From: an uncultured Planctomycetales bacterium
GTDB lineage: Bacteria > 4484-113 > JAFGCY01
NCBI GenBank assembly: GCA_964465955.1
Contig: CAYXMN010000002.1
Coordinates: 1-34,544 of the forward strand
Direction: 5' to 3'
Length of the DNA: 34,544 bases
Position 1 is the first letter of the stretch; each line of letters begins with the position of its first letter. Below the pieces are notes generated by a model, which was not told where the DNA came from, made no database searches, and worked only from the letters and a program-made list of their open reading frames with translations. Positions 1 through 26,070 of the stretch are shown piece by piece. A program made the position numbers and the translations under genes.

Positions 1-1427
1 AACAGCTCGACCTTCGCCACCGAGTTCGCGACGCCAAACAGCACGTAAGCTGCGTATTTACCGCTGCGGTCCGGATCCGGGGCAATCTCCACGTTTGAAG
101 CGCCAGCCAGCAAGTCTGCGCCGACGGACAGGTCGAACGGCGCTGGATACGGGCCGGGATTGAGCGACCAAGTAGCGGCGTCGAGCACGTACAGCTCGTC
201 GGTGTTGAAACTGAGGGCGAGCGCGTATTTGCCGTCGGGCGTGAAGGCGATATCGCTGGTGAAGGAGAATGACTCCGACAACACGATGGGGGCGTCGGCT
301 CCGCGGACGGCGGTTAAATCACGCAGATCCACCGCGTACAGCTGGGCTTCCAGCGAGCTGCAAATCAGTGCGTGATTGCCGTCGGGAGTCAGGGCGATCC
401 GGCCCGCGCCGACCAAGCCAAGCTCAAGTTGCCGCGGCTGGCTCGCGTCACCGCTCTGCCAGATGCGTTCGAGGTAGCTCGCGCTCTCCGCGTGCGGCTT
501 GTAATACTCATCGAACTGGATCGAACCACTTGTAACCACATACAGGCTGTTATGGCTGGGGTCGTAAGCGCCGAACTGCGGATTGAGGCCATAGGTGGGC
601 AGCTCGCCGTAGGAGCCGGTGGTTGTCTGAACCACTCCCACTATCCCCGGCGCATAAGTCGTGGGGGCGAAAGTGGCGATTTCGTTAAGGGGAATGTAAA
701 CCTTGCTGTCGAACACAACCGGCTTGCTCGGACCAATGAACGCAACGCCTGCGCCTTCCAGCAAATAATCCTGGCCAGCCAAGGGGGCCAGATTCCCGGC
801 CTCGAAACCTTGAACATGATTGCTGCCATTACTGACGACCCACAGTTTGTTATCGTCCAAGGCCAGGTAGCTGGGGCTGGCGCCGGCGGCGAAACTCGCG
901 GTGGCCAGCACGTTGCCGTCCAAGCTGTAGCGCACGGCGGTGTTATCCATGCTGTTCGCGACGAATAAGGAGTCGACGTCATCGACCTTGCCATAGGCCA
1001 TGTCATTCGGTCCGGCCCCGGTCGCGAATAACGGATTCGTGATGTGGTTCGCTGGGCTGTCCACGATGCAAGTGCTGCTCGCGGCGGCACCGTCTTTGGT
1101 ATAGGTGACCACCACTTGCTGGGCAGCGGGGGATAACACCGCGTCGAAGGCGAAACTGCCATCCAGCGCGGCGCTGCTTGATCCGGTCGCGCCGGCCGTG
1201 GCGGTCACGATGGTGCCGCCGTCGGCGCTGCCCGCCCCTGCGGCTATCCGCACTGCGGCTGTGCCATGAGCCACCGCGAAAACTTGAGCGGCCTCCGGCG
1301 GGCCGAGGGGCGCGTTGCCGCTGGTACCGCAGGCGGTTAAGGTAATTGAGGCAAGGAGGCAAACTGCGCCCCATGCCGAGTAAGCAGCGGCGCGCGATTT
1401 TACGCGCAGCGTTGTGTTAGCTGCCAT
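1..1427 (-). CDS. beta-propeller-repeat lipoprotein (N-terminus complete, C-terminal end beyond window edge)
   Basis: Frame is open from ATG (complement of 1425-1427) to position 1. It is absent from the ORF track because there is no stop in the window. N-terminus MAANTTLRVKSRAAAYSAWGAVCLLASITLTAC is a signal peptide plus lipobox. Repeated blades such as LTPDGNHALICSSLEAQLYAVDL and FTPDGKYALALSFNTDELYVLD resemble YVTN/lactonase-type beta-propellers. GC3 is high. GGAG lies upstream of the ATG. Confidence 0.6.
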   Translation of the reverse strand, partial: MAANTTLRVKSRAAAYSAWGAVCLLASITLTACGTSGNAPLGPPEAAQVFAVAHGTAAVRIAAGAGSADGGTIVTATAGATGSSSAALDGSFAFDAVLSPAAQQVVVTYTKDGAAASSTCIVDSPANHITNPLFATGAGPNDMAYGKVDDVDSLFVANSMDNTAVRYSLDGNVLATASFAAGASPSYLALDDNKLWVVSNGSNHVQGFEAGNLAPLAGQDYLLEGAGVAFIGPSKPVVFDSKVYIPLNEIATFAPTTYAPGIVGVVQTTTGSYGELPTYGLNPQFGAYDPSHNSLYVVTSGSIQFDEYYKPHAESASYLERIWQSGDASQPRQLELGLVGAGRIALTPDGNHALICSSLEAQLYAVDLRDLTAVRGADAPIVLSESFSFTSDIAFTPDGKYALALSFNTDELYVLDAATWSLNPGPYPAPFDLSVGADLLAGASNVEIAPDPDRSGKYAAYVLFGVANSVAKVEL

Positions 1428-1437
1428 CGCTCAACTC

Positions 1438-1630
1438 CAGAAGCTAAGATTGCCGGCCGGTCTCCTGGCTCAGCGTCAACGGGCCGCCCCGCCTTCCCAG
1501 GCGTACGTTCGCCCAGTGGCATCGTGGGGAGCTCTCAGCTTTACAGTGGCTGGTACCGCGGCGGGTTCGCACCGCCTTCCCAAATCCGGCAGCGCTAGTG
1601 TACCATGTGCTTATCCTGGCTCGGCCCCCG
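1438..1630 (-). promoter_or_regulatory. cobalamin (B12) riboswitch in the leader of the 1..1427 lipoprotein gene
   Basis: On the minus strand, GGGAAGGCGGTGCGAACCCGCCGCGGTACCAGCCACTGTAA (complement of 1541-1581) matches the conserved cobalamin-riboswitch core (GGGAA..GGTG.GAA.CC...GC.G..CC.GCCACTG). AGCCAGGAGACCGGCC (complement of 1455-1470) matches the B12 box. It ends about 15 nt before the GGAG/ATG of the downstream gene. Confidence 0.8.
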
Positions 1631-1932: not shown

Positions 1933-1952
1933 GGTGTTAATAGGAGCCCGCA

Positions 1953-1981
1953 TTGAATCTAGCTTCCTGGCGTGTTATCAT
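1953..1981 (+). promoter_or_regulatory. sigma70-like promoter (TTGAAT-N17-TATCAT) for dnaB
   Basis: Hexamers at 1953-1958 and 1976-1981 with a 17-nt spacer. This would give a leader of about 210 nt before dnaB. Confidence 0.3.
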
Positions 1982-2200
1982 CGCTGCCGGAAAACGAACC
2001 AGCTGCAGGGGAGCTTGAGCGGCTGGGAGGGTAGGCCGGAACACCAAAGAGAGAGTGTGCCGGTGCTGGGTTTGGAAGCAGCTTTACTTTATCTAGGCAG
2101 GGTGAATCGTGGTAAGCGTTAGAGGGATGCATTGTGGCCATTACCTGTCGCCGGTGCGCGGAGGGTGGCCGGCAGGTCAACGACCAGGAGGGTTGAACTA

Positions 2201-3672: not shown

Positions 3673-5040
3673 ATGGCAAACCCGCGCCGGATCATGGTGG
3701 TGGGCAACGGCGGGCGCGAGTGCGCGCTGGCGTCGGCGATCCTGCACAGCGCGGAGGTGGAGCGGTTGTACATCACGCCGCCGAACTGGGGCGTGGTGGA
3801 TCCGCAGGGCGGTGCGCGCGTGCGCGTGCTGAGCCTTAAGCCGGAGGACGCGCCTGGCATCGTCGCCGCGGCGCAAACCGAGAGGGTTGAGCTGGTGGTG
3901 ATCGGCCCGGAAGCGCCGCTAGTGGCCGGGCTGGCGGACGCGCTGCGGGCGGCGGGGATCCCGGCGCTGGGTCCTGGCGCGGCTGCGGCGCGGCTCGAGG
4001 GCAGCAAGGAGTTCGCCAAGGACTTCATGCAGCGCCATGGCATACCCACGGCGGATTACCAGGCCTTCACCAGCATCGACGCGCTGATGAGTTACCTCGC
4101 CGTGCTCGACGGGCCGTGCGTGCTGAAAGCTGACGGCCTGGCGGCGGGCAAGGGCGTCATCGTCTGCGAGTCGCGCAGTGATGCTGAGGTGGCGGCGCAA
4201 CGCATGCTCGTTAAGCGCGAGTTCGGCGAGGCCGGGGCGCGCGTCGTGGTGGAGCAGCTGCTCACCGGCCCGGAACTGAGCTTCACCTGCCTGGTGGCCG
4301 GCGGCCAGGCGCAGTTGCTCGGCGTCAGCACGGATTACAAGCGCTTGCTTGACGGGCAGCAGGGGCCGAACACCGGCGGCATGGGCAACATCTGCCCCAC
4401 GCCGTACGCAACCGCGGAGGTGCTCGCCGAGTTTACCGCGCGCATCCTCGACCCCGTGCTGGCCGGGCTCCACGCGGATGGGCTCGATTACCGCGGCTTC
4501 CTGTTCATCGGCGCGATGCTGACCAGCGCCGGGTTGAAGGTGCTGGAGTTCAACGTGCGCCTGGGCGATCCGGAAGCGCAGGTCGTGCTGCCGCTGCTGG
4601 AGGCGGATTGGCCGGCGGTGTTTGGGGCCGCGGCGGACGGGCGGCTGGCCCCCGAGGCGGTGCGGGTCCGGCCCGGCGCCTGCGTGGCGGTCGTCTTGGC
4701 CGGCGCGAGCTATCCCGCTGGCAAAAGCGAACCGGCGGAGATCGCTGGATTCGCGCGCGTGCGGGCCCGCGGTTTGCTGGATGGGGCTGATCCCGATGTG
4801 CGGCTGTACTTCGCCGGGGTGGACCGCGTGACGGGAGCCGGCGCGGCTGCCGGCGCCACAGGGCCGTATGCCACTTACTTCACAGATGATGAAGCGCAAT
4901 TCCTGGCTGCCGGCGGGCGCGTCCTGGCGGTCAGCGCACGCGGTGAGGACCTATCCAGCGCGCGGCGGTTGGCGTATGAGGTGGTGGGAAATCTAAGCTT
5001 CGCCGGGATGCAGTTCCGCAGCGATATCGGCAAGCGTTGA
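3673..5040 (+). CDS. purD: phosphoribosylamine--glycine ligase PurD
   Basis: MVVGNGGRECALA N-terminus, ATP-grasp core (VLKADGLAAGKGV, LEFNVRLGDPE), and GGRVLAVSA in the C-domain. GGGAGG RBS is present. Confidence 0.95.
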   Translation: MANPRRIMVVGNGGRECALASAILHSAEVERLYITPPNWGVVDPQGGARVRVLSLKPEDAPGIVAAAQTERVELVVIGPEAPLVAGLADALRAAGIPALGPGAAAARLEGSKEFAKDFMQRHGIPTADYQAFTSIDALMSYLAVLDGPCVLKADGLAAGKGVIVCESRSDAEVAAQRMLVKREFGEAGARVVVEQLLTGPELSFTCLVAGGQAQLLGVSTDYKRLLDGQQGPNTGGMGNICPTPYATAEVLAEFTARILDPVLAGLHADGLDYRGFLFIGAMLTSAGLKVLEFNVRLGDPEAQVVLPLLEADWPAVFGAAADGRLAPEAVRVRPGACVAVVLAGASYPAGKSEPAEIAGFARVRARGLLDGADPDVRLYFAGVDRVTGAGAAAGATGPYATYFTDDEAQFLAAGGRVLAVSARGEDLSSARRLAYEVVGNLSFAGMQFRSDIGKR

Positions 5041-5136
5041 GCGGTGAGGCTTGAGGTTTGGCGTCGTAATTAAGAGCGACTGGTTCAGTAAAGGAAAGAC
5101 CAATGGCAGGCAGGCGAATGCATGACGAAATCCGTG

Positions 5137-5160
5137 AAAAAAAGCCCCCCGTGGGGGGGC
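5137..5160 (-). terminator. strong intrinsic terminator oriented for the minus strand (orphan)
   Basis: Minus-strand sequence is GCCCCCC-cac-GGGGGGC followed by TTTTTTT. No annotated minus-strand gene lies upstream of it. Confidence 0.6.
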
Positions 5161-5470
5161 ATCTAGGGATGGGTAGGAGGATAATCAGTTTTTACCTGGA
5201 GGAGGGGCTGGGGCTGTTTTCTACTTCTACATTTCCTCCAGGACGTATATATATTTCCTTAGAAGTTTCAAGAAAGTTTCAACTTAGCCTGAAGAATATT
5301 CCAATGCGCTAGGTTTGAGCAAAGTTTTACCTGTGCGACCTTGGATTGCCTTATGGCATATATCCAGTTGAATGCCGGCGCATTGCTGCTAGCGTTAGTC
5401 CCAGTCAAGGTTCGCGGAGATAAGCTAGAGTTTGGATCCAACATATTGTTGTTTCCATCCGCGCAAAAAA

Positions 5471-5647
5471 GAGGCGGGCTTGAGCGACGAGGACTGCCCG
5501 GCGTCGAAAGACCGGTTGTTCGGCGAAGGCTGCAGCGCGGCCATAGGCGGCGAGGTCAGCCTGGATGTGCTGGCCGAGGGCTTCGAGAACAAGGACGCCA
5601 GCCCGGACGGAAGTGCGGGGGAAGGCGGAGCCGCAGGCGGCCAATAG
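5471..5647 (+). pseudogene. GC3-rich coding remnant (about 58 C-terminal codons of an unidentified gene)
   Basis: This frame (..EAGLSDEDCPASKDRLFGEGCSAAIGGEVSLDVLAEGFENKDASPDGSAGEGGAAGGQ*) has the strong G/C third-position bias of native genes. It is embedded in AT-rich DNA and lacks a credible start or RBS. Confidence 0.25.
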
Positions 5648-5656
5648 CCAACAGCT

Positions 5657-5664
5657 TGTATAAT
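5657..5664 (+). promoter_or_regulatory. extended -10 element TGTATAAT upstream of mrr
   Basis: TGnTATAAT-type element 27 nt upstream of the mrr ATG. Confidence 0.4.
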
Positions 5665-5690
5665 ACGGGTAACCATGTTGGGGGCTGTGA

Positions 5691-6596
5691 ATGGCGATAC
5701 CCGGTTACCAAAGCATCATGTTACCTTTGTTGCGCTTAACCGGCGACGGTGTGACCCGGCAGCTGCGTGATGCAATCGAACAACTCGCCAAAGAATTTGG
5801 ACTGACTGAAGAGGAACGCGGGGAGTTGCTACCCAGCGGACATCAAAGCACATTCGATAACCGCGTGGGCTGGGCCAGGACATATCTAAAGAAAGCTGGT
5901 TTGGTTGAGATGCCGAAGCGTGGGTACATCCAGATCACCCTGCGAGGCAAGACTACTCTTGATGAGAAACCAACAGAGATCAATGAAAAATACCTTCGGC
6001 AGTTTCCGGAGTTTGTTGACTTCAAGACTAGCAAACGTACAGTTGATGAGGAAACAGATTGCACTTTGTCGACCCAAAAGCAAACTCCTGAAGAACAGCT
6101 TGAGCTAGCACACCAAGTCCTGCGTGCTGAGTTGATCGATGAGCTGACCGCCGCGATCAAAGCCTGCTCCCCCAAGTTTTTCGAGCAACTTGTAGTTGAC
6201 TTGCTAGTAAAAATGGGTTACGGCGGATCACTGCGCGAGGCAGGCCAGGCCATTGGCAGATCTGGTGACGAAGGCATTGATGGCATCATTAAGGAAGACC
6301 GGCTGGGTCTCGATATCATCTATCTGCAAGCTAAGCGTTGGGAGAACGTTATCGGTAGGCCGGAGATTCAGAAATTCGCCGGGGCGCTGCAAGGCCAGCG
6401 TGCGCGCAAGGGAGTTTTCATAACAACATCCTCGTTCACAAGAGAAGCTAGGGAGTATGTTTCACTGATCGAGACAAAGATCATCTTGATCGATGGCAGC
6501 GATCTCGCTGAATACATGATCGATAACGGCGTGGGTGTGACCACCCACAGAGTATTTGAAGTGAAACTGATTGATAACGACTATTTTGAGGAGTAA
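5691..6596 (+). CDS. mrr: Mrr-family type IV (modification-dependent) restriction endonuclease
   Basis: N-terminal winged-helix Mrr_N-like region (MLPLLRL..GWARTYLKKAGL) plus the Mrr catalytic core (GDEGIDGII...LQAKRW...GVFITTSSFT). Confidence 0.9.
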   Translation: MAIPGYQSIMLPLLRLTGDGVTRQLRDAIEQLAKEFGLTEEERGELLPSGHQSTFDNRVGWARTYLKKAGLVEMPKRGYIQITLRGKTTLDEKPTEINEKYLRQFPEFVDFKTSKRTVDEETDCTLSTQKQTPEEQLELAHQVLRAELIDELTAAIKACSPKFFEQLVVDLLVKMGYGGSLREAGQAIGRSGDEGIDGIIKEDRLGLDIIYLQAKRWENVIGRPEIQKFAGALQGQRARKGVFITTSSFTREAREYVSLIETKIILIDGSDLAEYMIDNGVGVTTHRVFEVKLIDNDYFEE

Positions 6597-6610
6597 CTCT
6601 AGCTAGGGGA

Positions 6611-7579
6611 ATGATCATGAAGCAGTGGGTTGTCTTGGTGCTCGCTAGCCTATTTCTGCTGCTTGCGCTGCCTGCATTCGCCTATGTCCCGCATACCGGC
6701 GACCGCGCCGCACCGCTGAGCGGCCGCGACCTCAAGACCGACAGCGAGCTGAGCCTGGAAGACCTGCGCGGCAAGTGGGTGCTGTTGGACTTCTGGCATA
6801 TGTACTGCCCGTCCTGCCTGCGCGATCTGCCCGGTGTCTGCACGGCAGCCAAGCCGTACATGGCGGCAGGCGCGCTTGACGTTGTCCTGGTCAGCCTCGA
6901 TCAACCTGAGACAGCGGCAGCGATGAAGGAGTTCGTGGCCAGCCTGCCAATCGAACCGCATGTGATCTACTCAGGCGGCGGCCCGCTGCCCATCGGCCCG
7001 CCTGTGCTAGTCGCACCCGACTGGGACTCCTATGCGCCACAAGCCACGGAATGGGGCGTCTCCGGTGTTCCGGCATCATACCTGATCACACCAGACGGCA
7101 CCATCGCCGCCAAGCGCATCCGCCGGGATAACGTGGATGACTTGCTAGATTATTTCCTCGGACGAGGCGCGGCTTACGCGCCAATCGCGCTCCGCACGAG
7201 CGTTAGTTACAGCGATGACGCGCAAGTCAATGTCATGATCGAAGCAGCCAGCGCCAGCCACGCCCCGTTGCAAGCGCGGATCACCTATCGCCTGGAACGT
7301 GTGGCGTATAAAGAATACGAGGGCTGCCTGATCCAGGATCGCGGCACTAGAGAATATACAGACTGGGTCACGAGCGAGCTGTGCCTCATGTTCAGCGAGT
7401 TCAGCGACGCGGTGCAGCCGTGCTTGATTGATGCCAGCGGCTACCAAGGCCTGCAATACCGCGTTGAGGTGCTGCTGCCAGGCAGCGGGCGCTATAAGGA
7501 TGGTGCGGGCTTGTGGCTACGGCAATACGGGGACCTGGACTTTGCACTAGACTGGCTGGGCGGCGAGTCCGCGAATTAG
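6611..7579 (+). CDS. secreted TlpA/redoxin-family thiol-disulfide oxidoreductase with an unknown C-terminal domain of about 170 aa
   Basis: Signal peptide (LLLALPAFA). Thioredoxin-fold motif KWVLLDFWHMYCPSCLRDLP. GVPASYLITPDGTI cis-Pro loop region. Confidence 0.8.
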   Translation: MIMKQWVVLVLASLFLLLALPAFAYVPHTGDRAAPLSGRDLKTDSELSLEDLRGKWVLLDFWHMYCPSCLRDLPGVCTAAKPYMAAGALDVVLVSLDQPETAAAMKEFVASLPIEPHVIYSGGGPLPIGPPVLVAPDWDSYAPQATEWGVSGVPASYLITPDGTIAAKRIRRDNVDDLLDYFLGRGAAYAPIALRTSVSYSDDAQVNVMIEAASASHAPLQARITYRLERVAYKEYEGCLIQDRGTREYTDWVTSELCLMFSEFSDAVQPCLIDASGYQGLQYRVEVLLPGSGRYKDGAGLWLRQYGDLDFALDWLGGESAN

Positions 7580-22827: not shown

Positions 22828-22983
22828 CGCGCAGTTGCATTACACCCCGGCGCCAGGGATCTGCCGGCACCGCAACCTTCCGCTGAGTGCTGCTGCCTTC
22901 CGGCCCTGACACGGTTCACGGCGTTTGCGCGCAGCAGGCCCGGCGCGCGGGGCTTGCGTAGATTTTAGCATGGCCGGAGGCGG

Positions 22984-23904: not shown

Positions 23905-24039
23905 GGCTTTCCTCGTCAGCATGGCTTCACAAGTACCCGATGCGCGCATTATCGCAGATGTTCAGGGAAACGAACATCAACTCTGTGTTGCGACAGTAGT
24001 TGCCATTTGTGAATTGTGTATGTTGTTAGATGTATGCCG

Positions 24040-24068
24040 TTGACATCGTTTTCTTTTTGCGGTAGACT
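24040..24068 (+). promoter_or_regulatory. sigma70 promoter TTGACA-N17-TAGACT for the island genes
   Basis: Hexamers at 24040-24045 and 24063-24068, about 28 nt upstream of ATG 24096. Confidence 0.45.
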
Positions 24069-24095
24069 ATCTTCATCTAAGAGTGTGAGGACACC

Positions 24096-25013
24096 ATGAG
24101 ACTGCTACTCCTATCAGCCTGCTTAGGCAGCGCCTTGCTTTTTATGTCTTGTGACAATGTCGTGAAAAGCGATCAGCATGCTAGCTCATCACCTGTACAA
24201 CTTCGACTTGCCAGTTATAACATCCAAGATGCAAATGCCGAGGGTAATCCCTTTGCTGAGCAGTACACAGAAATCGACGACTGGATGTTTGAGAATTTCC
24301 AGCAAGCGACCTCATCTAGTGGCGGGTTAATCCTTAACATTACAAAAGAACAGAAGATGCTGAAGTGCCCTGTGAACGAGGATGGATTCAAACTGCCATA
24401 TCGTGATTCGTTGGTTATGGTGGAGGAAGCCAGGAAGAATGGTGACGAGACATTAGGTATTCAAGGATATACTTTTTTCTATGCTGCGGGAGAAATGCCA
24501 GACGAGATCACTGCTATGGTTCGAGAAATGAATTCCGAGGTATTGGCCGAATACTATCCCGTAGTTCCATTATGGCTTGCTGAAGCAGAATACGATAGTG
24601 CTGCGATGTGTCCAAATGGTGATATTCTCACGATGGGGCCAGTTGAGATTGGGACTATTGAAACCAAAGAGGATGCTGATGAAAAGACGACCAAAGAAGG
24701 TGGTTGTTGTGGCGGATCGTTTAATGCTAAGACATTTTATCGCTACAATGCGGATGGGGTTCTAATCAGCGCAGATAAGAGCTGGATTTTTACATTTGAC
24801 GATTTTTCCCCTGAGAAGCTGGCATCGCCAAACATGACCGTAAGATTGGACGGTGTAGTAACTTTCACTGGTGACGATGGAAATATTGTTGCGGTATATG
24901 ATTATGATTGGACTGAGTTGGGAACTAGTTTGCCTCCGATGAGGGATCTGCATTATTTCATGTTCTACCCAAAGTCGACCCTCGATCAGGTATATCACTG
25001 CCAACAAAGTTAG
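24096..25013 (+). CDS. lipoprotein of unknown function (island gene 1)
   Basis: Signal peptide plus lipobox LLFMSC. AT-rich codon usage unlike the backbone. No recognisable domain. Confidence 0.7.
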   Translation: MRLLLLSACLGSALLFMSCDNVVKSDQHASSSPVQLRLASYNIQDANAEGNPFAEQYTEIDDWMFENFQQATSSSGGLILNITKEQKMLKCPVNEDGFKLPYRDSLVMVEEARKNGDETLGIQGYTFFYAAGEMPDEITAMVREMNSEVLAEYYPVVPLWLAEAEYDSAAMCPNGDILTMGPVEIGTIETKEDADEKTTKEGGCCGGSFNAKTFYRYNADGVLISADKSWIFTFDDFSPEKLASPNMTVRLDGVVTFTGDDGNIVAVYDYDWTELGTSLPPMRDLHYFMFYPKSTLDQVYHCQQS

Positions 25014-25069
25014 AGTTGTTCTGGTGGACAGGGTGCTGGTGACTAACGTGTAGTAAAGGAGATCATGAG

Positions 25070-25594
25070 TTGAATAAGAGAATCCACTTATCAATGTACT
25101 TAGTACTGGTGTGTGTGCTCATTACATGTGTGGCGCATGCAGGTGAGAAAGCGGTGGGATGTTTCGCTTATCAGCAGTCGATTACCGTGGCTGGACCTCA
25201 GACACCATATGAACCATGTCAGACTGATGGTGGTTATTGTATCGACGTGCTAAGTTGTTTAGAGCCTTTGGATTATGATAGAGTATGTTTTCAAGCTCAG
25301 CAGTATACGTTTTTCATTTGGGAGTGTTATGCTGTATTCGGGAATACTTACCATAATATAGATTGCGGTAAAAGTATGGTGGTATCAAATCAGGTTGTCG
25401 GAAACGGCGAACGTGTGGCACAGATTTGTGATCCGAATGAATTATGTGCATTTGCTAATCTCCCAGATGTTGGTCCAAGTGATATAGTAGACGAATGGAT
25501 CAATGGTATGAGAGTAGTATTTGATACATTTACCATCACATGTGATTGCGAAGCGGGAGAATGTGTATCAAGCCAAAGCTCATCGGAAAGCTAA
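25070..25594 (+). CDS. secreted Cys-rich protein (12 Cys in the mature part), unknown function (island gene 2)
   Basis: Signal peptide LVLVCVLITCVAHA. AAGGAG lies upstream. TTG 25070 or ATG 25094 could be the start. Confidence 0.65.
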   Translation: MNKRIHLSMYLVLVCVLITCVAHAGEKAVGCFAYQQSITVAGPQTPYEPCQTDGGYCIDVLSCLEPLDYDRVCFQAQQYTFFIWECYAVFGNTYHNIDCGKSMVVSNQVVGNGERVAQICDPNELCAFANLPDVGPSDIVDEWINGMRVVFDTFTITCDCEAGECVSSQSSSES

Positions 25595-25640
25595 TTGAAA
25601 TCGACATTTGTTTGAATTGAAATTGAAGTTCTTAACTATG

Positions 25641-25675
25641 CGCTAGGAGGATAAGGCAATCTTGGCCTCCTAGCG
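25641..25675 (+). terminator. perfect 10-bp inverted repeat (CGCTAGGAGG..CCTCCTAGCG) downstream of the island genes
   Basis: Stem 25641-25650 / 25666-25675 with a 15-nt loop, followed by a T-rich tract (TATTGCATATT). This is not a canonical U-run. Confidence 0.4.
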
Positions 25676-26070
25676 TATTGCATATTAGCGTAATGTGTAA
25701 ATCGAGAACTAAAGATGTATTGCTCCTGATTGCACTGCGGCTCGATCGCGGCTAGTGCCTGGGGGCGGACTGCGCCCGGGCAGGGTTAAGGTACATATCC
25801 GCCGGGTCTTCCTTGATGGGGGTGAACCCGCCGCGGTGGATCTCCCGCAGCTTCCGGCTGGTTAAACTAACCACCGCCACGCCAAAGCGAAAACAGCCAA
25901 GCAGATCACATGCAGCACGAGGACATTCCTGTCAACCCCGGCTGCTTGCTTTCCACCGCCGCCATAGCCTGGGAGATAAATGAGAATAGTAGTTATGAAT
26001 AAGGATATGGTATATGAGCATGGCGATGACTAAGAAATTATTCGGACATCCGAAATCAACCTTGCTAATA

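Follow-up and report, generated by a model that had tools for sequence, protein, structure and literature searches.

The stretch of DNA analysed here, referred to as the window, comprises positions 1 to 34,544 of contig CAYXMN010000002.1 from an uncultured Planctomycetales bacterium (GenBank assembly GCA_964465955.1). At its very beginning the minus strand carries a cobalamin riboswitch followed directly by a gene for a putative β-propeller lipoprotein, which we call X. The riboswitch sequence is ordinary for its class, and what is notable is the gene under its control. In related genomes X occurs either in stand-alone loci, as in the window, or as the last gene of cobalamin uptake operons, directly behind btuB. 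X is thus probably a helper in B12 uptake, and helpers of this sort have until now been described in Bacteroides alone. The coordinates of the features are collected in Table 1, and related loci and family proteins are designated by L and P numbers, respectively.

A cmscan search of the whole window returned the cobalamin riboswitch RF00174 on the minus strand (1605..1438) with 95.2 bits against a gathering score of 31.5 (E = 1.1e-22), the match covering model positions 1-189, full length and untruncated. A first-pass annotation, made by a model from the letters alone, had placed a cobalamin riboswitch on this strand within 1438-1630; the riboswitch is indeed present, with the aptamer ending at 1605 and not at 1630, and the two strings quoted there for the core and the B12 box were each recovered as a unique occurrence. 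The GGGAA...GCCACTG of the junction core falls inside 1541-1581, and 27 nt separate the end of the B12 box from the ATG. Homologous aptamers are present in every related locus and score 79-94 bits. Among the 11 related loci compared, the L5 sequence GCGGUACCAGCC is the same in eight and CCAG is invariant in all; GCGGTACCAGCC is likewise unchanged in eight, with two stem substitutions and one loop substitution elsewhere that spare CCAG. A permissive rescan of 1400-2300 gave nothing further in the way of a second riboswitch or other RNA. Just 5′ of P1, the hexamer TACACT (window 1587-1592, minus strand) is invariant in the window, L001, L002 and L022 (alignment A2) and may serve as the -10 element of a riboswitch promoter; a convincing -35 element was not seen.

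A P13-like hairpin starts about 6 nt past P1, and the G-AUG of the lipoprotein gene follows it directly. The aptamer end and the ATG are 11 nt apart, and the last aptamer bases overlap the hairpin. Its loop, CUGGAGUU, contains the Shine-Dalgarno (SD) sequence GGAG (1435-1438), and the CUGG of the loop (1437-1440) is complementary over 4 bp to the CCAG of L5 (1550-1553). This arrangement is seen directly in the sequence, as is its conservation: the 20-nt block of SD, hairpin and ATG, GCTTCTGGAGTTGAGCGATG, is 100% identical in four stand-alone loci whose proteins are only ~50-62% identical, and a hairpin after the aptamer is kept in 14 loci, including 10 of the operon type (every one examined). 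Pairing is retained in 95.5% of cells over 11 loci, and the changes are one-sided only (U-A/U-G). A terminator search found no intrinsic terminator between the aptamer and the ATG; three terminator-like matches within the open reading frame (ORF) were at chance level and were discounted. Minimum-free-energy folding of the whole leader (z = +0.87) was uninformative, and the covariance model and comparative conservation were therefore used instead. Since the 11 nt between aptamer and ATG leave too little space for a terminator and none was found, riboswitch control would have to act on translation initiation, as the first-pass annotation had proposed, and the placing of the SD in a conserved loop complementary to L5 points the same way.

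In this riboswitch class it is established that a kissing loop between L5 and L13, stabilised by bound cobalamin, occludes the ribosome-binding site (PMC5028336), and from the complementarity and conservation described above we infer a ligand-dependent kissing loop in the window leader. The leader would be a class-I-type cobalamin riboswitch and the locus a single-gene, B12-repressed unit. With coenzyme B12 or another corrinoid bound, L5 (UACCAG) would dock on the hairpin loop and bury the GGAG, switching translation off; in B12 shortage the loop would be left free and the gene translated. The leader of E. coli btuB and the env8 HyCbl riboswitch likewise have a short J1/13 linker (~6 nt) and then a hairpin loop that bears the ribosome-binding site and is complementary to L5 (PMC5028336).

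The ORF of gene X runs off the window one codon before its expected stop. Homologues are 457-492 aa long and the window protein aligns to their ends, lacking no more than the final residue (F) and the stop codon; the ORF is therefore essentially complete and not the first gene of a truncated operon. The N-terminus reads MAANTTLRVKSRAAAYSAWGAVCLLASITLTAC-GTSGN. The lipobox is plainly visible, its Cys is invariant in 24 of 24 family members, and the residues that follow are rich in Gly and Ser (CGTSGN, CSGGGG, CGGGG). The protein is strongly acidic (isoelectric point (pI) 4.22, net charge -27), and mature family proteins all have a pI of 4.05-4.4 and a net charge of -18 to -48. Pfam assigned no family to X, even at E <= 1, NCBIfam gave no relevant family, and YVTN/YncE-type repeat models of either collection gave no significant match; three family members carry the JGI label 'DNA-binding beta-propeller fold protein YncE'. 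Searches of PDB chains with phmmer and with the family profile returned only marginal matches to one or two propeller blades (E >= 5e-5, 15-25 bits), namely the SodC-fused propeller 9m58, the lactonases 3scy and 6igb, PON1 and virginiamycin B lyase.

The AlphaFold2 model of X, built from a 24-sequence alignment, has a mean confidence (pLDDT) of 91.4 and a predicted template-modelling score (pTM) of 0.86. In this model, which displays the fold clearly, a helix at residues 6-32 and a disordered linker after Cys33 precede an Ig-like β-sandwich and a seven-bladed β-propeller. Motifs conserved in the propeller of the family are TGAGPND, ANSxDNT, NGxN, IQFD, LGxxGAG, SFNTDE and PGPYP. The sandwich is missing from P0013 and P0023 (376-377 aa; alignment A1 columns ~55-150), in which the lipobox leads straight into the propeller, and is hence dispensable for the core function. 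The first-pass description of a lipobox lipoprotein with propeller-like repeats thus agrees with both the LTAC/Cys33 motif and the modelled seven blades, and its statement that the regulated gene is neither a transporter nor a cobalamin enzyme is in keeping with the lack of any Pfam or NCBIfam family.

When the X model was compared with the PDB by Foldseek, the leading matches were Lp49, E. coli YncE and many G-beta subunits. Leptospira Lp49 (PDB 3BWS), the top match (E = 6e-12), is a bacterial envelope protein in which, as in X, an Ig-like domain is followed by a seven-bladed propeller; its identity to X is 13% and the overall root-mean-square deviation (rmsd) of 11 Å suggests a different orientation of the domains, and unlike X it has no B12 context. 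Of the solved structures, YncE (PDB 3VGZ, 3VH0, 7SEU) superposes best (TMt 0.77-0.78, rmsd 3.9-4.0 Å over ~365-378 columns), but its identity to X is only 14-18% and, unlike X, it is soluble and periplasmic and lacks a lipid anchor, an Ig-like domain and a B12 link.

Table 1. Features of the X locus in the window, and upstream ORFs (uORFs) of operon-type loci
Feature	Position	Strand	Basis
Cobalamin riboswitch aptamer RF00174 with large P6 extension	1438..1605	minus	cmscan, 95.2 bits
Aptamer core GGGAAGGCGGTGCGAACCCGCCGCGGTACCAGCCACTGTAA, including L5 loop UACCAG with CCAG at 1550-1553	1541..1581	minus	string search, single occurrence
B12 box AGCCAGGAGACCGGCC	1455..1470	minus	single occurrence; inside RF00174 match
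P13-like regulatory hairpin GCUU-CUGGAGUU-GAGC	1429..1444	minus	conservation across related loci
Start codon ATG of the lipoprotein	1425..1427	minus	7 nt past GGAG
Lipoprotein gene X, 475 codons, no stop	3..1427	minus	ORF translation; window edge one codon before expected stop
Signal peptide with lipobox L30-T31-A32-C33; Cys33 codon 1329-1331	1329..1427	minus	translation, family alignment, model
N-terminal Ig-like β-sandwich, ~residues 50-123	1059..1280	minus	model: seven strands, pLDDT ~95
Seven-bladed β-propeller, ~residues 129-475	3..1043	minus	model, family invariant columns and Foldseek
uORFs	L004 5339-5401; L007 5345-5407; L006 5193-5249; L009 5228-5290; L010 5254-5319
uORFs	L011 5154-5210; L013 5384-5437; L015 5333-5386; L017 5363-5416; L034 5247-5300

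The operon-type set comprises 16 distinct loci (L004, L007, L006, L009, L010, L011, L012, L013, L015, L017, L023, L025, L029, L031, L032 and L034), and their X proteins share 37-47% identity with that of the window. Genes for an ABC ATPase, a Peripla_BP_2 protein, an FecCD protein and a Plug/TonB barrel precede X, giving the order btuD-btuF-btuC-btuB-X with X last. In all 16 loci X lies directly 3′ of btuB, and in L004, L006 and L007 the two genes overlap by 4 nt (ATGA); a cobalamin riboswitch stands at the operon head in each of the 10 distinct loci whose sequence reaches that far. The best NCBIfam matches are TIGR01779 (TonB-B12) for the receptor, which JGI labels 'vitamin B12 transporter', and BtuC (NF007081) for the permease, while BtuF and the corrinoid ABC ATPase are the second-ranked matches of their respective operon genes. 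No family member without a B12 signal at its locus was found among the loci examined, and the genomic linkage of the X family to B12 riboswitches and btuB is obligatory.

Unlike the E. coli btuB and env8 leaders, those of the operon-type relatives employ the P13-like hairpin and the start codon behind it for a short uORF that is coupled to btuD. The start codon after the SD hairpin opens a frame of 17-21 codons there, not btuD itself; the encoded peptide is not conserved across subclades, the stop codon of the uORF overlaps or abuts the btuD ATG, and the own SD of btuD is buried in a GC-rich hairpin (e.g. CTCCGG...CCGGAG). The arrangement resembles a relay in which the riboswitch would act on the uORF and the uORF, by translational coupling, on btuD. 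In the lineage of the window, the SD hairpin of the riboswitch and its AUG are joined straight to the ORF of the lipoprotein, which is 14-20 residues longer at its N-terminus. A further peculiarity of the operons is that in L006 (6981-10004, equal to L014) and in L011 (P0306, 991 aa) the BtuC ORF continues in frame and stop-free into BtuB, the junction retaining a signal-peptide-like segment (...RRRPAEVLTICLLGGLLLSAVPARA-QDE...); the fusion is either a polyprotein processed by signal peptidase or the result of internal initiation after loss of a stop.

The stand-alone set consists of six members, the window and its five closest relatives (P0001-P0005, ~50-62% identity). At these loci the upstream gene is divergent or lies across a long gap, and all four for which DNA is available (window, L001, L002/L003, L022) have a full cobalamin riboswitch whose end lies 11 nt ahead of the ATG; the synteny of dnaB and purD is common to the window, L001 and the contig of P0002. 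The downstream gene is convergent in all five closest relatives, and from this synteny no operon is expected past the window edge. The first-pass suggestion that the rest of an operon lies beyond that edge is thus not borne out, the ORF being all but complete and the next gene of the relatives convergent. No other B12-related feature was found in the 34.5-kb window. In the window lineage gene X stands apart from btuB under its own riboswitch, and the BtuB of this lineage must be encoded elsewhere in the genome.

The family is small. A word-indexed search found 23 relatives of X, the best at 61% identity, and an exhaustive profile search of 1.84 billion representatives delimited a sharply bounded core of ~25 full-length proteins (424-657 bits), followed by a second tier of the same architecture at 200-280 bits and, below that, by generic repeat proteins. 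The GTDB genomes that carry the gene are metagenome-assembled genomes labelled UBP7, 'Planctomycetales bacterium' or 'bacterium', and the family was found only in metagenomes of the UBP7 lineage. The DnaB of the window shares 71% identity with its counterpart in the complete UBP7 genome CP060262.1 and belongs to a clade of 54-83% identity separated by a gap from other phyla (<= 48%), a placement that assigns the window to the UBP7 lineage. That these bacteria are diderm is indicated by the LptD-like protein, PagL and TonB-dependent receptors encoded near related loci. Weak GTDB matches from Acidobacteriota, Micrococcales and Bacteroidetes (L018-L021) were set aside as single-blade repeat matches with no riboswitch. 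Members of a distant tier (P0033, P0035, P0037, P0041 and P0049-P0092) have a lipobox, the layout of an Ig-like domain plus propeller and an SFN(T/E/S)D-like motif, and at least one of them comes from Thermodesulfobacteriota (HSG30178.1).

Considering the position of the gene and the architecture of its product, the known counterpart of X is BtuG of Bacteroides (B. thetaiotaomicron BT1954 and paralogues; PDB 3DSM, 8BAI, 8OKV, 8BMX). Lipoprotein lids of this type mediate femtomolar B12 capture in gut Bacteroides and are described as confined to that phylum (PMC6143338, PMC10404256). The face of the BtuG propeller that binds B12 is negatively charged (PMC10404256), BtuG caps BtuB (PMC6143338, PMC10404256), and its homologues are stated to be 'exclusively found in the Bacteroidetes' (PMC6143338). 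Both BtuG and X are acidic lipobox lipoproteins with a seven-bladed β-propeller. The BtuG gene adjoins btuB in an uptake locus controlled by a cobalamin riboswitch, and the same is true of X in the 16 operon-type loci; of this arrangement the window shares the riboswitch part only. X differs from BtuG in its phylum (UBP7 lineage vs. Bacteroidetes), in the extra N-terminal Ig-like domain of most members and in lacking a signal like the MKWD that follows the Cys of BtuG2 for export (PMC6143338). Outside Bacteroides, full-text literature searches gave no paper in which a propeller lipoprotein is linked to a cobalamin riboswitch.

The B12 role proposed in the first-pass annotation is much strengthened by the 16 loci in which X follows btuB, by the riboswitches that lead those operons and by the riboswitches that the stand-alone copies possess in their own right. 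The BtuG-like position after btuB, the lipid anchor combined with a seven-bladed propeller, and the strong acidity favour capture and hand-over of corrinoids in the manner of BtuG. We lean towards the view, which we regard as rather likely, that the locus is a B12-repressed single-gene unit and that X is a lipidated, acidic propeller lipoprotein aiding BtuB in corrinoid uptake. Once exported and lipidated on Cys33, the protein would go to the outer membrane and work there with the TonB-dependent receptor BtuB; in the likeliest mode, its propeller face would capture a positively charged corrinoid at the cell surface and pass it to BtuB, in the way of BtuG. Its outer-membrane or surface location, its binding of corrinoids and its physical partnership with BtuB are what we infer from gene context, anchor and charge.

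A number of observations weigh against a BtuG-like helper under B12 control. Neither btuB nor btuFCD lies within the 34.5-kb window, and no BtuB homologue tied to the stand-alone lineage was found in a word-limited search, a result that is not evidence of absence; in the operons, all transporter matches to NCBIfam are below the curated cut-offs. In the leader, the P13 hairpin shows no compensatory changes among 11 loci and has a weak predicted stability of -1.3 kcal/mol. Outside Bacteroidota and spirochaetes most lipoproteins face the periplasm, no surface-export signal is recognisable in X, and the Bacteroidota lipoprotein export motif was not found after the Cys among family members. Searches of all PDB chain sequences gave no BtuG match with phmmer at E <= 1 or with the family profile at E <= 10, and no known B12-binding protein was matched in the sequence and profile searches of PDB chains with X. 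The structural comparison with BtuG, which had been suggested along with the first-pass annotation, upholds the seven-bladed propeller but does not place BtuG among the best matches. The BtuG entries 8BAI, 8OKV and 8BMX are contained in the Foldseek PDB library, and BtuG2 (8bai), BT2095 (8okv) and the BtuBG complex (8bmx) ranked 28-50 with rmsd 11-12 Å and 10% identity, their E values of ~5e-9 to 1e-8 and TMt of 0.62-0.67 being no better than those of unrelated propellers; YncE and G-beta superpose better on X. With the model of P0013 (pLDDT 89.2), a natural member without the N-terminal domain and hence a fairer subject for this comparison, YncE and G-beta again led and no BtuG chain was among the top 50 matches.

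Cumulatively, X shares the fold class of BtuG as far as the models go, a generic likeness from which a specific relationship is not demonstrable. As neither sequence similarity to BtuG nor the Bacteroidota export signal was found in X, the protein would at most be a homologue too remote to detect, and by its likeness in position, anchor and fold class it is best read as an analogue of BtuG and not as a member of its family. 'Analogous', the term chosen in the first-pass annotation, was the right word, given the lack of sequence similarity and the generic nature of the structural resemblance.

In the nearest competitor of this reading, X would be an outer-membrane lipoprotein that faces the periplasm and aids BtuB otherwise, as a dedicated assembly or stabilising factor (cf. 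the propeller lipoprotein BamB for BAM) or as a platform in the periplasm on which BtuB and BtuF dock. The Gly/Ser-rich stretch after Cys33, with no recognisable surface-export signal, is what such a protein would have, periplasmic being the default topology of lipoproteins in most diderms; one distant relative has a faint PQQ_2/BamB match in Pfam (E = 5e-4, below cut-off), and the tight translational coupling to btuB through the ATGA overlap suggests a stoichiometric partner. Yet the BtuB homologues of most bacteria need no factor of this kind, and the operon already encodes the periplasmic binder BtuF. Moreover, the extreme acidity of the whole family is easier to reconcile with the attraction of a cationic corrinoid than with the role of a chaperone, and the stand-alone copies with riboswitches of their own are regulated by B12 status in their own right. 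We therefore consider a periplasm-facing X unlikely.

Still less probable, in our judgement, is that X is an extracytoplasmic propeller hydrolase or lyase resembling the lactonases, PON1 or virginiamycin lyase, which would act on corrinoids or corrinoid-carrying material before uptake, e.g. by releasing or remodelling cobamides. Its weak sequence matches include exactly such enzymes (3scy, 6igb, PON1, virginiamycin B lyase) as well as 9m58, lactonase RPA3624 is among the Foldseek matches, and the conserved Asn/Asp-rich motifs of several blades could in principle line a metal site. But those sequence matches (E >= 5e-5, 15-25 bits) are marginal, cover one or two blades and are as expected from shared repeat motifs; neither Pfam nor NCBIfam yields an enzyme family even at E <= 1, the best structural matches (YncE, Lp49, G-beta) are non-enzymatic, and the conserved Asn and Asp residues recur at equivalent places in successive blades, like structural YVTN-type repeats. 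Cobalamin riboswitches do control genes beyond transport and biosynthesis, and the window gene has no transporter neighbour, so that the riboswitch might merely regulate a protein unrelated to corrinoid handling, as with the B12-independent isozymes metE and nrdAB. However, orthologues sit inside btuDFCB operons at 16 distinct loci, overlapping btuB, and an exported lipoprotein is an implausible isozyme of a cytoplasmic B12 enzyme, which makes this explanation very improbable indeed.

Some features of the window lie outside the X gene and its leader. Within the 595-nt intergenic region between dnaB and the riboswitch, a block of ~97 nt (window 1945-2039, L001 9386-9482) is 84.5% identical, a higher conservation than that of the genes on either side. 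The only sigma-70-like promoter match (plus strand 1953-1981, TTGAAT-17-TATCAT) lies in this block and faces dnaB. The block has no match in Rfam and is probably the promoter and leader of dnaB. A bacterial small signal recognition particle RNA (RF00169) was detected by cmscan at 22848-22945 on the minus strand (63.3 bits). Against the 62% GC of the window two islands of low GC stand out, and both were probably acquired horizontally: 5001-7000 (53-55% GC), with a gene for an Mrr-type restriction endonuclease at 5691-6596, and 24001-26000 (44-46% GC), with two ORFs (24096-25013 and 25070-25594) that have no Pfam match.

The X family is unannotated and phylum-restricted, and it occupies a genomic niche that has been described as exclusive to the Bacteroidetes. 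We tentatively entertain the more specific possibility that X arose independently as a corrinoid-capture lipoprotein, exposed at the surface and capping BtuB. If this were true, lipoprotein-capped TonB-dependent B12 transporters would not be exclusive to Bacteroidota, and in the window lineage the gene for the lid would have left the transporter operon and acquired a separate copy of the module of riboswitch, hairpin and AUG, which would allow its dosage to be tuned by B12 independently or the protein to be released as a free 'corrinophore'. A different propeller lipoprotein in the same genomic slot of an uncultured phylum known from environmental metagenomes would suggest convergent evolution of lipoprotein-assisted B12 piracy. 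X would then offer a new scaffold for very tight B12 binders, and the reading would assign a function to an unannotated protein family.

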